64,000 nucleotides of DNA from Thermoplasmata archaeon (lineage in GTDB: Archaea; Thermoplasmatota; Thermoplasmata; GCA-020350865), in contig CP070751.1 of NCBI GenBank assembly GCA_020348445.1, positions 4,070,164-4,134,163 on the forward strand, written 5' to 3'. Below the pieces are notes generated by a model. The model did not search any database. It was not told the origin of the DNA and saw only the letters and a program-made list of their open reading frames with translations. The position numbers and the translations under genes are program-made. Of this stretch, positions 28,701-32,247 are shown one piece after another (position 1 is the first letter of the stretch; each line of letters starts with the position of its first letter).

Positions 28701-29303
28701 GTGGCACATGTTCTGGAGATGATCGGCGGTAAAGTTGGGGCAATGGAGGGGAGATTTGTGGACGGGACGGCCTTTTCCGGTGAGAGCGAGGAGGCCTTAA
28801 GACAGGGATTGATTTTTGCAGGTTTTAAGGACAATGGCAAGGAAGTCATGTACGATGGCAACACTGGTAGGATCATAGAAGCTGAGATTTTTGTTGGTGT
28901 GATATATTATCAAAAGCTCCATCATATGGTGGCAGGAAAGCACCATGTACGTTCACGGGGCCCAGTTCAGATTCTAACCCGTCAACCCACTGAAGGTAGG
29001 GCAAGGCAGGGGGGTCTGAGATTCGGTGAGATGGAGAGAGATTGTTTAATAGGTCACGGCGCTGCCATGGTGATCAAAGATCGACTCCTTGACGAGTCAG
29101 ATGGTACAGTCCAACATGTTTGCGGCAATACGGAATGTGGGCACATCGCATTGGCGGATAGGCAGGGCGCTCTCCGCTGTCCTGTTTGCGGGAACAACGC
29201 CAGTATCCATCCAATTCAAACGAGCTACGCGTTCAAGTTGCTTTTGGACGAGCTTCTTTCACTTGGTGTGGCCATGAGGCTTCAATTGGAGGATTTAAGA
29301 TGA
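25710..29303 (+). CDS. rpoB: DNA-directed RNA polymerase subunit B (Rpo2, unsplit)
   Basis: [28 protein letters not shown]-terminal Zn ribbon; extra CVKC...CNVC insertion near aa 670-700. Confidence 0.98.
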
Positions 29304-29488
29304 GCAAATTCAAAGCTACCCACAATTCGAGCAGGCGAGGCCCGAGTTTTTGGATGGCCGAAACTTTTTGCGAGGGTCGAGCCAGCGCAGAATCGACAAA
29401 ATTTCCGAAGAATTTTGGCGAGAAGTGCGGAGCTTTACGATGCACTGAAATGTGTCAAAAAGTTTTGGAATTGGAGGATTTAAGATGA
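29284..29488. mobile_element. 165-bp structured insert (29304-29468) flanked by 20-bp direct repeats at the rpoB/rpoA' junction; MITE/REP-like, origin unknown
   Basis: AATTGGAGGATTTAAGATGA at 29284-29303 and 29469-29488. The insert has an outer stem CCGAAACTTTTTG/CAAAAAGTTTTGG and several inner hairpins. Confidence 0.7.
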
Positions 29489-32247
29489 TAGGAAGAGGAG
29501 TTTCTAAAAGGATCAAGAGCATCAAGTTCGCGTTTCTTTCACCTGAGGAGATGAGGAGACTATCAGCCACCAAGATAATAACAGCCGATACCTACGACGA
29601 TGACGGTTTTCCTATAGATATGGGGCTTATGGACCCCCATCTAGGTGTTATCGAGCCAGGCCTTCGTTGCAAAACATGCGGTAAAAAGGTCGACGATTGT
29701 CCAGGTCATTTCGGACATATCGATTTGGCCATGCCGGTAATTCATGTGGGCTATGTCAAGGATATCAAGAACCTTCTGAAGGCAACATGCAGGGAATGTG
29801 GAAAACTACTTTTAACTGATGCCCAGGCCAAGGAATACAAGAAGGATATGGATAGAATAGGCGATTCCGGCGGAGATTTTCTGGATGTGATGCTGGTTAC
29901 AAAAGAGACAGCAAAGGATGCTAGCAAAAGACAGTCCTGTCCACATTGTAAGGCTGTCCAGAGAAAGATCACCTTGGACAAACCCACCACATTCAGGGAG
30001 GATGGACATAAGCTCACCCCCAAGGAGGTAAGAGAGAGATTGGAAAAAATCCCAGATGAGGACCTTATTCCGCTGGGTATCCATCCCGGTATCGCAAGGC
30101 CTGAATGGATGGTTCTCACCGCGCTTTTGGTTCCACCTGTTACTGTAAGACCCTCGATAACACTGGAGTCGGGTGACAGATCAGAGGATGATCTCACACA
30201 CAAACTCGTGGATGTGCTCAGAATCAATCAGCGGCTTCGAGAAAACAGGGATGCAGGTGCACCTCAGCTGATCGTAGAGGATCTATGGGAACTTTTACAG
30301 TACCACGTTACGACTTATTTCGACAATCAAACATCAGGTATACCTCCTGCAAGGCACCGCTCTGGAAGACCGCTAAAAACCCTGGCACAGCGGTTAAAAG
30401 GCAAAGAAGGGCGGTTCAGATCCAACCTCTCGGGTAAGAGGGTGAACTTCTCGGCAAGAACAGTGATATCACCTGACCCGTTGCTTTCCATAAACGAGGT
30501 TGGAATACCTGTGGAGACTGCAAAGGAGCTCACTGTTCCAATTAGGGTTACATCTTACAATATAGATACCATAAAGGAACTCATCCGAAACACCGTAAAT
30601 CCCCCTGAGGACCTATTCTATAGTGCAGGTGTTAATTACGTGATAAGGCCCGATAATAGGCGAGTCAAGGTAACAGAGAAGAACGCAGAAACATTGGCTG
30701 AATCAATTGATATTGGATACACGGTGGAGAGGCAGCTTGTGGATGGCGACATAGTGCTCTTCAACAGACAGCCATCTTTGCATAGAATGTCCATGATGGC
30801 CCATGAAGTCAGGGTGATGCCATATAAGACATTCAGATTCAACCTCGCCGTATGTCCCCCTTACAACGCCGATTTCGATGGAGATGAAATGAATTTACAT
30901 GTGCTCCAAAGCGAGGAGGCCAGGGTGGAGGCTAAGGTGCTCATGAGGGTTCAAGAACATATTATATCCCCAAGGTTCGGCGGACCAGTAATCGGAGCAA
31001 TACATGATTATGTAACAGGTTCATTTTTACTTACGTTCAGGGATTCTAAGTTCACAAGAGAGCAGGTAATAAAGATACTTGCCAGGCTGGATTACGAAGA
31101 TTTGCCCCCCTCCCGTGTGGAGGATGGCATTGAGTACTGGTTGGGAAAAGAGCTCTTCAACCTTGCTCTTCCAAAGGATCTGAATATTGAGTTTAAAGCA
31201 TCCATATGTCAGCATTGTGATGACTGCAAAAAGAAGGAATGCGATGTCGATGCCTTTGTTCATATCAAGGATGGAAAGATAAGTTGCGGTACCATAGATG
31301 AAAAGGCAGTTGGTGCGTTCAAGGGTCGAATTCTCGATAAGGTGGCAAGGGATTACGGCTCTGATAGGGCAAGGGAATTCATTGATACCATTACAAAGCT
31401 GGCCCTGGGTGCAATAATGGTAAGAGGTTTCACCACAGGAATAGATGATGAGGATATACCCAATGAAGCCAAGATACAGATCGAGGACCTTCTGAAGAAC
31501 GCCAAACGCGAGGTGGATGAGCTTGTTTCGGCGTACAGGGAAGGTATCTTGGAGCAGATGCCAGGGCGAAGCTTGGAGGAGACCCTGGAAGTGGAGGTCA
31601 TGAAGGTACTTGGACGAGCAAGAGACACAGCTGGTCAAATTGCAGGAAAACATCTTGGTTTGGAAAATTCTGCAGTTATCATGGCGAAATCAGGGGCCAG
31701 GGGTTCAATGCTGAACCTAAGCCAGATGGCTGGATCTATCGGCCAGCAGGCGGTTCGAGGAGAGAGGATCGCCAGGGGATACTGGGGCAGGACACTGCCC
31801 CATTTTAGAAAGAACGACTTGGGTGCGGAGGCCAAAGGTTTCGTGGAATCAAGCTATAAAAGTGGTCTTGCTCCAACCGAGTATTTCTTCCATAGTATGG
31901 GAGGGAGAGAAGGTCTTGTGGATACCGCGGTGAGAACATCGCGTTCAGGGTACATGCAGAGGAGATTGATCAATGCACTGGAGGATCTGAAAGTCAAGCA
32001 GGATGGTACCGTCAGAAATACCGCCGATACCATAATCCAGTTCAAATATGGAGAGGATGGTGTGGATCCATCAAGGAGTATCAGAGGGGATGCTATTGAC
32101 ATGGATGACATTCTTCTGGAGGTTCTTGGGGAGAGGTACTGGGGATTGTACACCGGCGAGAGGGAGAAAGCCCTGGCCAGCTATGGAACGCAGGAGAAGG
32201 ACATGCTCAGCATTTCGTTTGAAGAAGAAGAGGTAGAGGAGGAATAG
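29485..32247 (+). CDS. rpoA1: DNA-directed RNA polymerase subunit A' (Rpo1N)
   Basis: Catalytic YNADFDGDEMN, CPGHFGHI, NRQPSLH. Start is ATG 29485 after GGAGG (MIGRGVSKRIKSIKF), not 29452. Confidence 0.98.
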   Translation: MIGRGVSKRIKSIKFAFLSPEEMRRLSATKIITADTYDDDGFPIDMGLMDPHLGVIEPGLRCKTCGKKVDDCPGHFGHIDLAMPVIHVGYVKDIKNLLKATCRECGKLLLTDAQAKEYKKDMDRIGDSGGDFLDVMLVTKETAKDASKRQSCPHCKAVQRKITLDKPTTFREDGHKLTPKEVRERLEKIPDEDLIPLGIHPGIARPEWMVLTALLVPPVTVRPSITLESGDRSEDDLTHKLVDVLRINQRLRENRDAGAPQLIVEDLWELLQYHVTTYFDNQTSGIPPARHRSGRPLKTLAQRLKGKEGRFRSNLSGKRVNFSARTVISPDPLLSINEVGIPVETAKELTVPIRVTSYNIDTIKELIRNTVNPPEDLFYSAGVNYVIRPDNRRVKVTEKNAETLAESIDIGYTVERQLVDGDIVLFNRQPSLHRMSMMAHEVRVMPYKTFRFNLAVCPPYNADFDGDEMNLHVLQSEEARVEAKVLMRVQEHIISPRFGGPVIGAIHDYVTGSFLLTFRDSKFTREQVIKILARLDYEDLPPSRVEDGIEYWLGKELFNLALPKDLNIEFKASICQHCDDCKKKECDVDAFVHIKDGKISCGTIDEKAVGAFKGRILDKVARDYGSDRAREFIDTITKLALGAIMVRGFTTGIDDEDIPNEAKIQIEDLLKNAKREVDELVSAYREGILEQMPGRSLEETLEVEVMKVLGRARDTAGQIAGKHLGLENSAVIMAKSGARGSMLNLSQMAGSIGQQAVRGERIARGYWGRTLPHFRKNDLGAEAKGFVESSYKSGLAPTEYFFHSMGGREGLVDTAVRTSRSGYMQRRLINALEDLKVKQDGTVRNTADTIIQFKYGEDGVDPSRSIRGDAIDMDDILLEVLGERYWGLYTGEREKALASYGTQEKDMLSISFEEEEVEEE

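Follow-up and report, generated by a model that had tools for sequence, protein, structure and literature searches.

MITEs and other non-autonomous derivatives of insertion sequences, including the SM elements of Sulfolobus and the PATEs of IS200/IS605, resemble the element family described here in being small, gene-less, multi-copy, and structured, in being present in some relatives and absent from others, and in being flanked by target duplications. Long direct repeats of variable length are known from IS1634 and IS1549, which are related to IS4, measure 1.6–1.9 kb, and carry a DDE transposase and inverted ends. Casposons use a Cas1 casposase, are kilobase-sized with inverted ends, and leave a fixed duplication of 14–15 bp, and casposon family 2 occurs in Aciduliprofundum, which is related to the Thermoplasmata. 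At the level of folded RNA, triple helices formed between an ENE and an A-rich tract are found in MALAT1, MEN-beta, KSHV PAN, and plant and fungal transposon RNAs, and the pseudoknot of telomerase RNA is comparable. Eukaryotic ENE-type elements also ride on transposon transcripts (PMC13541005). Rickettsia palindromic elements (RPEs) share with the present locus the situation of a small mobile element in expressed coding DNA that is read by ribosomes while the host genes are spared, but RPEs insert in frame inside proteins, whereas here a separate bridge ORF lies between two genes.

The locus was analyzed in a window of 64,000 nt, the whole stretch from position 4,070,164 to 4,134,163 of contig CP070751.1 (assembly GCA_020348445.1), to which all coordinates refer. 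In the labels of this analysis, G000 is taken to be the source genome, from an uncultured Thermoplasmata archaeon, and G001–G004 are taken as its congeners. The insert between rpoB and rpoA′ of G000 is a member of a gene-less family of ~92 nt that displays the small size, non-coding character, multiple copies, and insertion polymorphism of MITEs (the rpo site is empty in G002 and G004). The family differs from MITEs, however, in having no terminal inverted repeats and no parent insertion sequence that could be found, in duplications of 14 to ~80 nt rather than fixed and short ones, and in a strand-specific pseudoknot with a probable triple helix instead of a simple hairpin.

The rpoB/rpoA′ junction and its direct repeat

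The boundary between rpoB and rpoA′ is one of the most conserved gene junctions in Archaea. A first-pass annotation of the window had described an exact 20-nt duplication around a 165-nt insert at this boundary, with both genes preserved, and sequence matching at both coordinates bore this out. The sequence AATTGGAGGATTTAAGATGA is present exactly twice (Table 1), with a spacing of 185 nt and 20/20 identity, and the 185 extra bases between the two genes consist of the 165-nt insert and the 20-nt duplicate; a perfect repeat of 20 nt inside 200 nt is far more than chance would produce. In the first copy lie the final 17 coding bases of rpoB plus the stop codon TGA, and both genes are intact, with all seven Rpb2 domains in rpoB and Rpb1 domains 1–5 in rpoA′. 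A stop-free frame of 62 codons from the ATG at 29300, whose TGA (29486–29488) overlaps the ATG of rpoA′, had likewise been proposed and was confirmed on the sequence.

Missing read support had been named at the outset as an observation that would speak against the duplication. Logan contigs from two sediment metagenome runs, probably of the source sample and assembled from short reads, matched 29150–29385, 29356–29489, and 29460–29650 without difference and tile the insert exactly. A look-up of RNA sequencing runs for the region listed none that contains the sequence. Because of these tiling contigs, and because homologous inserts occur at the same point in two independently assembled species (G001 and G003), the insert is not an assembly artifact. 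A likeness of the rpo spacer to rpoB itself (AATTCAAA..GCTAC, ~70 nt upstream) was judged to be due to chance.

Table 1. Coordinates of the genes, repeats, and element parts at the rpo locus, as positions in the window.
Feature	Position	Strand	Basis
rpoB, unsplit RNA polymerase subunit B, 1197 aa	25710–29303	+	ORF; Pfam Rpb2 domains 1–7
Direct repeat copy 1 (target-site duplication), with rpoB end, ribosome-binding site GGAGG, and overlapping stop and start (ATGA)	29284–29303	+	Exact 20/20 repeat; single copy in empty sites of G004 and G002
Bridge ORF of 62 codons, from first ATGA to second; open in all three insert-bearing species; no Pfam match	29300–29488	+	ORF; relatives; Pfam
Variable AT-rich 5′ spacer; 76% identical to G001, unrelated to spacers at other loci	29304–29320	+	Alignment
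Structured core: stem A, GA internal loop, GCAGG/CCAGC, stem C, U-tract, pseudoknot stem B, 3′ A-rich tail; split by nested module	29321–29468	+	Match to covariance model R1; covariation
Stem A 5′ strand, CACAATTC; partner 29390–29393 and 29451–29454	29321–29328	+	8/8 helix 1 pairs change on both sides, 38 copies
Conserved GA of internal loop and GCAGG (partner CCAGC, 29382–29386); loop GA opposite GNA, candidate kink	29329–29335	+	Invariant alignment columns
Stem C 5′ strand; partner 29374–29381	29336–29343	+	7/9 helix 3 pairs change on both sides
U-tract 1, TTTTT preceded by GAG; putative Hoogsteen strand in U.A-U triple helix	29347–29351	+	C tracks A-tract G in parallel register, 15/19 variants
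Stem B 5′ strand in apical loop; partner 29456–29468, pseudoknot	29358–29370	+	Pairing and family covariation
Nested 57-nt mini-module, two hairpins, within stem A 3′ strand	29394–29450	+	Absent from G001 and metagenome strains
Stem B 3′ strand and A-tract, CAAAAAGTTTTGG; precise 3′ end, abuts repeat copy 2	29456–29468	+	3′ end kept to last bases in all copies
Direct repeat copy 2: rpoA′ ribosome-binding site (GGAGG) and ATG, TGA closing the bridge ORF	29469–29488	+	Exact repeat; ORF
rpoA′, RNA polymerase subunit A′, 920 aa, start ATG at 29485	29485–32247	+	ORF; Pfam Rpb1 domains 1–5

The element family, its fold, and its nested modules

Homologues of the insert were sought by BLAST and covariance search, as the first-pass annotation had proposed, which recovered ~40 genus copies and hundreds across the class. 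BLAST of the insert against its own 5.16-Mb genome returned one partial match, behind a tRNA-Thr gene, and revealed neither a near-identical master copy nor a long relative in G000. Further copies, located after tRNA-Gln, in the hdrA-mvhD interval, and within methylase genes, came from profile and pattern searches; plain BLAST being insufficient, the family was delineated with a profile, then a regular expression, and then a covariance model (R1). Matches to R1 at E <= 1 numbered 11, 14, 9, 8, and 6 in the five genus genomes, ~40 of them convincing. A class sample yielded at least 325 matches at E <= 0.001 in 30 of 151 genomes belonging to eight families, with up to at least 26 copies per genome, counts that are lower bounds as 28 candidates were scored per genome. 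Three further compound copies in G000 were found via their nested modules.

Searches of Rfam gave no match for the rpo copy at E <= 10, and six canonical copies searched at E <= 1 returned the neighboring tRNAs alone. A pattern scan of viral contigs produced five matches, approximately the chance expectation, none of which was confirmed by the covariance model. No description of archaeal elements with such repeats, nor of archaeal ENE-like triple helices, was encountered in the incompletely covered literature, and the ~92-nt family, widespread in several Thermoplasmata families, is apparently undescribed.

The insert had been drawn as a multibranch fold in the first-pass annotation. Taken as a whole, the 205-nt fold is energetically unremarkable (z = -1.14), and the structural claims made here therefore rest on covariation, assessed in a model-fitted alignment of 38 copies that leans towards the model. 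In this alignment, 86% of paired cells were compatible with pairing compared with 32–40% when the partner was slid, 16 of the 19 pairs change on both sides, and the covariation score was 0.596 against 0.187 for shuffled data, with none of 500 shuffles scoring as high. Three covarying stems are present in the family, one of them a pseudoknot. Stem A comprises 8 bp, the internal loop sets GA opposite GNA, and GCAGG/CCAGC runs on into stem C, which is capped by an apical loop with the order GAG, U-tract 1, a short turn, U-tract 2, and GAG. Stem B forms between U-tract 2 with its neighbors and the 3′ tail, measures 11–15 bp in intact copies among the 31 scored, has a mean energy of -11.7 kcal/mol compared with -8.0 kcal/mol when paired with the tails of other copies, and shows the compensatory variants CTGAAAC/GTTTTAG, CTATAAC/GTTATAG, and CCTTG/CAAGG.

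A fold was accordingly supported, although with pairings that differ from those drawn. The outer stem CCGAAACTTTTTG/CAAAAAGTTTTGG stands, as it ends at the second repeat, covaries across the family, and is identical with pseudoknot stem B. In place of the hairpin AATTCG..CGAGTT, covariation pairs AATTC (29324–29328, within CACAATTC) with GAATTGTG, which is split into the two segments given in Table 1, and in place of GTCGA/TCGAC it pairs GGGTCGAG with CGAGGCCC, the two strands of stem C. The sequences CAAAATT/AATTTTG and AGTGC/GCACT do form two hairpins, but these belong to a separate nested module that is absent from relatives.

This module splits the 3′ strand of stem A and is missing, as exactly 57 nt, from G001 and two metagenome relatives, the joint 29393>29451 (57 nt skipped) being found in metagenome runs X1 and X3. 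Related modules of ~54 nt lie within the 5′ strand of stem B in at least six other copies, without duplication, and a twin-hairpin module of ~93 nt occurs at one point, between GCCA and GCGGAG, in at least seven copies and also in the rpo copy of a relative. The rpo copy of G000 acquired its 57-nt module later. A hairpin module also adjoins the tRNA-Gln copy of the element.

The two U-tracts are mirror images of each other. In 15 of 19 distinct variants, corresponding to 31 of 35 copies, the position of the single C of U-tract 1 tracks that of the G in the A-tract in parallel register, and the antiparallel reading fits one of 19. U-tract 2, the Watson-Crick strand, tracks the A-tract in antiparallel register in 14 of 19 variants, and in one variant AAAGAAAGAGG is matched by TTTCTTTCTCC. 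None of 10,000 permutations reached the observed match, a result that is no true probability because the copies are related. The register of U-tract 1 and the A-tract is the probable signature of a U.A-U/C+.G-C major-groove triple helix. This arrangement is similar to ENEs in that two U-rich tracts clamp an A-rich 3′ tract in Hoogsteen parallel and Watson-Crick antiparallel registers, and in that a G of the A-tract is matched by the C of each U-tract, a feature shared with the C+.G-C triple of MALAT1. By contrast, ENEs are eukaryotic and viral RNAs with demonstrated stabilizing roles, while this family is archaeal and a putative RNA, and the topology here is a loop-to-tail pseudoknot on a kinked hairpin. 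The long hairpin would have to bend for the tail to reach the apical loop, for which the tandem G.A loop is the obvious candidate.

Pair types in the family included 43 G.U, eight A.C, and 69 G.A/A.G. The excess of G.U over A.C indicates that one strand folds, either as RNA or as single-stranded DNA, between which the pairs do not discriminate. Strand-specific folded ends are a trait of IS200/IS605 elements and their PATEs, which insert 3′ of a fixed tetra- or pentanucleotide and leave the target unduplicated, and from which the family is distinguished by its long duplications, the lack of a fixed junction motif, and the failure of Y1_Tnp to track the element.

Flanking repeats, empty sites, and candidate movers

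Direct repeats of local sequence flank ~25 of the 38 genus copies and several copies in distant families. Their lengths range from 14 to ~80 nt, with near-perfect repeats of 20, 21, 24, 33, 35, 39, 40, 54, and 74 nt, and older repeats, of up to ~80 nt, have diverged. Identities within the genus are 20/20 at rpo, 32/33 at tRNA-Gln, 38/39 at mvhD, and 51/54 and 34/35 for copies in G001, and in other families 24/24, 40/40, and 72/74. The second repeat begins 0–9 nt past the 3′ end of the element and the first ends 0–27 nt before stem A, the filler at both junctions being unconserved and mostly AT-rich. The duplicated sequence comes from the 3′ ends of tRNA genes, where the element occurs in both orientations, from the end of rpoB, from the final ~70 nt of a methylase gene, from the first 37–60 nt of mvhD paralogues (element antisense), or from plain intergenic DNA. 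The rpo case is an ordinary member of the family whose 20 nt happen to span the needs of both genes, and insertions elsewhere within such genes would presumably be lost.

No terminal inverted repeats were found, the left end being variable and AT-rich and the right end ..AAAAAGTTTTGG or ..AAAAACGG, which are not complementary to it; the sole inverted pair of the element is stem B, which joins an internal to a terminal segment. A shared target motif was not found at the junctions. Microhomology of the 3′ end of the element with the bases before the repeat was considered and set aside as not general, since it reaches 8 nt in one copy (G035_C11b) and is otherwise 0–2 nt.

rpoA′ was found in 40 relatives and the junction was inspected at 30 loci. 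A single ATGA overlap had been predicted for the empty site and was present in two of the four congeners, G004 and G002, as one CAACTGGAGGAYYTRMGATGA in which the TGA of rpoB overlaps the ATG of rpoA′, while 25 of 25 genomes examined from other families had the ATGA overlap or a short spacer. The remaining congeners carry inserts: G001 has one homologous insert of 108 nt with the junction repeated, and G003 has a tandem pair, made up of a form with a deletion (58 nt) and a full form (109 nt), with the junction present three times and its third copy degenerate. The rpoA′ DNA tree, ((G000,G003),(G001,(G004,G002))), would be compatible with either one gain and one loss or two gains. As the second G003 copy is of another subfamily (stem C CAATGC/GCATTG, like the tRNA-Thr copy), the rpo junction was hit at least twice. 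Metagenome relatives displayed the same insert minus 29394–29450, a spacer of ~20 nt alone between two copies of the ribosome-binding site and ATG, a near-empty site, or a copy carrying the twin-hairpin module. These empty sites, together with the ~40 genus and hundreds of class relatives, most of which have their own repeats of 14 to ~80 nt, agree with the suggestion in the first-pass annotation of a non-autonomous element that makes long target duplications.

Candidate movers were evaluated against the distribution of the element. The precise 3′ end, variable 5′ junction, and variable duplication are those of a SINE-like retroposon, but a search for a reverse transcriptase (RVT_1, PF00078) was negative for G000 and G001, both of them closed genomes, and for three families rich in the element, f9 (0/8 genomes), f10 (0/7), and f21 (0/2). 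Casposons likewise insert at the 3′ ends of tRNA and protein genes and rebuild the interrupted end by duplication, but the family departs from them in the length of its duplications and the absence of inverted ends, and Cas1 (PF01867) was not found in G000 and G001 (closed) or in G012 and G024. IS1634 and IS1549 have in common with the family a very variable duplication of tens of bases or more, but a search for IS4-type DDE genes found none in G012 or G024, despite at least 23 and at least 26 copies of the element, respectively, and gene and element occur without each other. Y1_Tnp was rejected since six of seven f10 genomes and G016 lack it and it is common in families without the element.

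Insertion of a member of the ~92-nt family with duplication of 20 nt of target, combined with a coupled bridge ORF and a single-stranded intermediate, is in our assessment a well-supported explanation of 29304–29488 and probably the correct one. Under this explanation, an element of ~92 nt inserted at the rpo junction and duplicated 20 nt of target, and because the duplication spans the final rpoB codons, GGAGG, and ATGA, the end of rpoB is preserved in copy 1, whereas copy 2 supplies rpoA′ with a ribosome-binding site and a start. The insert would be co-transcribed with the operon, and ribosomes ending rpoB would restart at the first ATGA, read 62 codons, and stop on the second, such that termination-reinitiation coupling to rpoA′ may survive and selection may have kept the frame open. 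The element itself would move via a single-stranded intermediate, RNA or single-stranded DNA, by means of enzymes that it does not encode. The precise 3′ end, junction filler, variable duplications, and strand-specific fold suggest a process closer to target-primed retroposition, or to capture of single-stranded DNA fragments at staggered breaks or replication flaps, than to cut-and-paste. Counted against this explanation are the lack of a linked enzyme and of inverted ends, a duplication too variable for a fixed staggered cut, the short unconserved filler at both junctions, and the high identity of the rpo core between species with no master copy, which is not expected of a decaying selfish insert.

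Alternative readings and the place of the insert in the operon

With the nested module removed, the rpo cores of G000 and G001 are identical at 86 of 91 positions (94.5%), compared with 79.3% for the last 300 nt of rpoB, 84.0% for the first 300 nt of rpoA′, and 76.5% for the 5′ spacer. A core more conserved than its flanking genes would be a sign of constraint on the resident rpo copy, and the non-synonymous core differences point to the nucleic acid rather than a peptide as its object. Because of this conservation between species, a sizeable probability attaches to the second suggestion of the first-pass annotation, a co-opted regulatory RNA, in which what began as a mobile insertion now functions within the operon as a structured RNA between rpoB and rpoA′, although we regard this as tentative. 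Such an RNA could set the B:A′ ratio via partial termination at T5 runs, pause ribosomes at the pseudoknot, or protect the 3′ end of rpoB transcripts in the manner of an ENE and A-tract. This possibility is also favored by orthologous tRNA-Thr copies that are ~86% identical (hand count), by the RNA-like character of the tandem G.A loop, the G.U pairs, and the triple helix, and by the placement of copies on the same strand as the upstream gene in 15 cases and the opposite strand in seven, a weak bias among non-independent copies. It is opposed by the occurrence of copies in both orientations relative to genes, by the two congeners and every other family examined that do without the insert, by the loss of the whole triple-helix part in the first insert of G003 (G003a), and by the core-less and near-empty junctions of metagenome relatives.

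A more far-reaching proposal, somewhat more speculative still, is that the kinked hairpin and triple-helix pseudoknot seal the 3′ end of the element's own RNA, that an RNA or single-stranded DNA copy is the intermediate of a new kind of insertion driven by host enzymes and copying 14–80 nt of the target, and that copies such as the one at rpo are then selected as terminators, stabilizers, or coupling devices.

The bridge frame, of 62 codons in G000 and 43 in G001, is open in both of these genomes and also runs open through the two G003 inserts, of which the first, of 78 nt, leaves ATG to ATG in frame and the second has the frame closing at a TAG one base before the rpoA′ ATG. Its indels are multiples of three, with a gain of 57 nt in G000 and a loss of 51 nt in G003a, and the register used at rpo is free of stops in three of three rpo copies compared with three of 30 copies elsewhere. 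An open frame in three species bounded by coupled start and stop signals is what a real small-protein gene between rpoB and rpoA′ would present, but this is highly improbable given that Pfam returned no match, each of the three core substitutions that separate G000 from G001 inside the ORF is non-synonymous, the length shifts by a 19-codon insertion and a 17-codon deletion, the frame is closed in 27 of 30 copies at other loci, and conservation follows base pairing. What is maintained would seem to be an open path that ribosomes can pass, not a protein. At the hdrA-mvhD junction, an open frame appears, on a reading by eye, to cross the antisense copy and to end at the mvhD start.

Removal from the rpo mRNA of an intron-like sequence, such as a bulge-helix-bulge cut by the archaeal splicing endonuclease, that restores a single ATGA could be scar-less at a duplicated junction and would suit the three methylase genes of G000 whose reading frame the element interrupts, but it merits very little credence because no junction-joining helix exists in the fold or the family structure, direct repeats cannot pair together, and an open frame with multiple-of-three indels would be unnecessary if the sequence were spliced. 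Integration by archaeal integrases does produce direct repeats of the 3′ ends of genes, tRNA genes in particular, and 20–70 nt is within the range of att sites, yet attL/attR scars of a mostly deleted larger integrative element (virus or plasmid) are hardly to be believed in when the repeats that enclose this one conserved 92-nt fold are unrelated across dozens of targets, each of which att would need to match, no long relative was found, and the viral-contig matches went unconfirmed by the model.

On the preferred explanation, an element insertion with target duplication, even the highly conserved rpoB/rpoA′ junction can accommodate a mobile element, since stop, ribosome-binding site, and start are all rebuilt by the duplication and the bridge ORF preserves coupling. 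Copying of 14–80 nt of the target would, if true, let the element settle harmlessly in the ends of essential genes. If the folded molecule is RNA, the family would contain the first ENE-like triple helix outside eukaryotes and their viruses. The long and variable duplications, without inverted ends and without a linked transposase, reverse transcriptase, or Cas1, point to a non-textbook insertion mechanism, and the many natural pairs of filled and empty sites are available for working it out.

Copies at gene junctions and methylase gene ends

The core of the element between rpoB and rpoA' (window 29321-29468) had 94.5% identity with the rpo locus of a genus relative (L012 of G001), the flanking RNA polymerase genes of the two species being 79-84% identical, and a search of the genome found no master copy. 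At the hdrA-mvhD junction, also translationally coupled, the element was antisense and 37-60 nt of the mvhD start were duplicated, and hdrA-mvhD paralogues with the element were identified in the relatives G001, G002, G003, and G004, the stems of these copies being quite different between species. The element also occurred at or near the 3' ends of genes that form a multi-copy N4/N6 DNA methylase family. The final ~70 nt of the methylase genes in G001 and G002 were duplicated behind the element, and in the source genome the frame was broken by the element plus other modules ahead of the WVKK..HEHLFVFRKP end, so that these interrupted copies are either pseudogenes or dependent on removal of the insert.

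Modules inserted within the element

Element copies hosted a distinct family of ~54-57-nt mini-modules with two hairpins (pattern CCGAWGAA .. CGAG .. hairpin) that were inserted without duplication, usually in the T-run of pseudoknot stem B where the pairing was preserved. One further mini-module (G000:C1 4285335) apparently lay outside any main element. At least seven element copies carried a twin-hairpin module of ~93 nt (TGGTGG..CCTCCACTA and GTGGAAAACAT..ATGTTTTCCAC), in each case at the identical position GCCA|GCGGAG, which suggests a site-specific insertion of single-strand type.

Copies behind tRNA genes and tandem arrays

Downstream of the element copy at tRNA-Gln was a second, unlike module of 64 nt, within which the tRNA end recurred in inverted form. 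This module had its own flanking repeat, ~30 nt that comprised the tRNA-Gln end and trailer, such that the tRNA-Gln end was present three times. At two G001 loci downstream of tRNA genes, the 5' and 3' parts of one element were separated by a complete element of a different subfamily and a tRNA-end repeat, an arrangement that would reflect nesting or replacement of copies. In other families, the element formed tandem arrays with periods of ~117-161 nt that could have originated when the flanking repeats underwent unequal crossing-over, or through a rolling-circle step.

Coordinates of element copies and modules in the source genome (G000), genus relatives (G001, G002, G004), and genomes of other families (G016, G071, G124); C, contig; L, extracted locus
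Feature	Location	Locus or strand
Methylase-linked copies	G000:C1 3019120, 1733861, 4960451, 1735900; G001 3209449; G002 C153	
hdrA-mvhD copy	G000:C1 2995795-2995889	L040 1950-2105, minus
Mini-module, rpo copy	window 29394-29450	
Mini-modules elsewhere	G000:C1 1733898-1733971, 1735900-1735973, 5034410-5034482, 3799992-3800065, 4285335-4285402	
Twin-hairpin module	G000:C1 4960514-4960606	
Twin-hairpin module, same point	G000:C1 copies 1735900, 5034410, 3799992; G002 C120, C11; G004 C60	
64-nt module downstream of the tRNA-Gln copy (region)	G000:C1 3896400-3896640	L039, minus
Nested/replaced copies (putative)	G001:C1 1492652-1492744, 1457585-1457730	L076, L078
Tandem arrays	G071 C48 1333-1583; G124 C11 32-283; G016 C101 1914-2122
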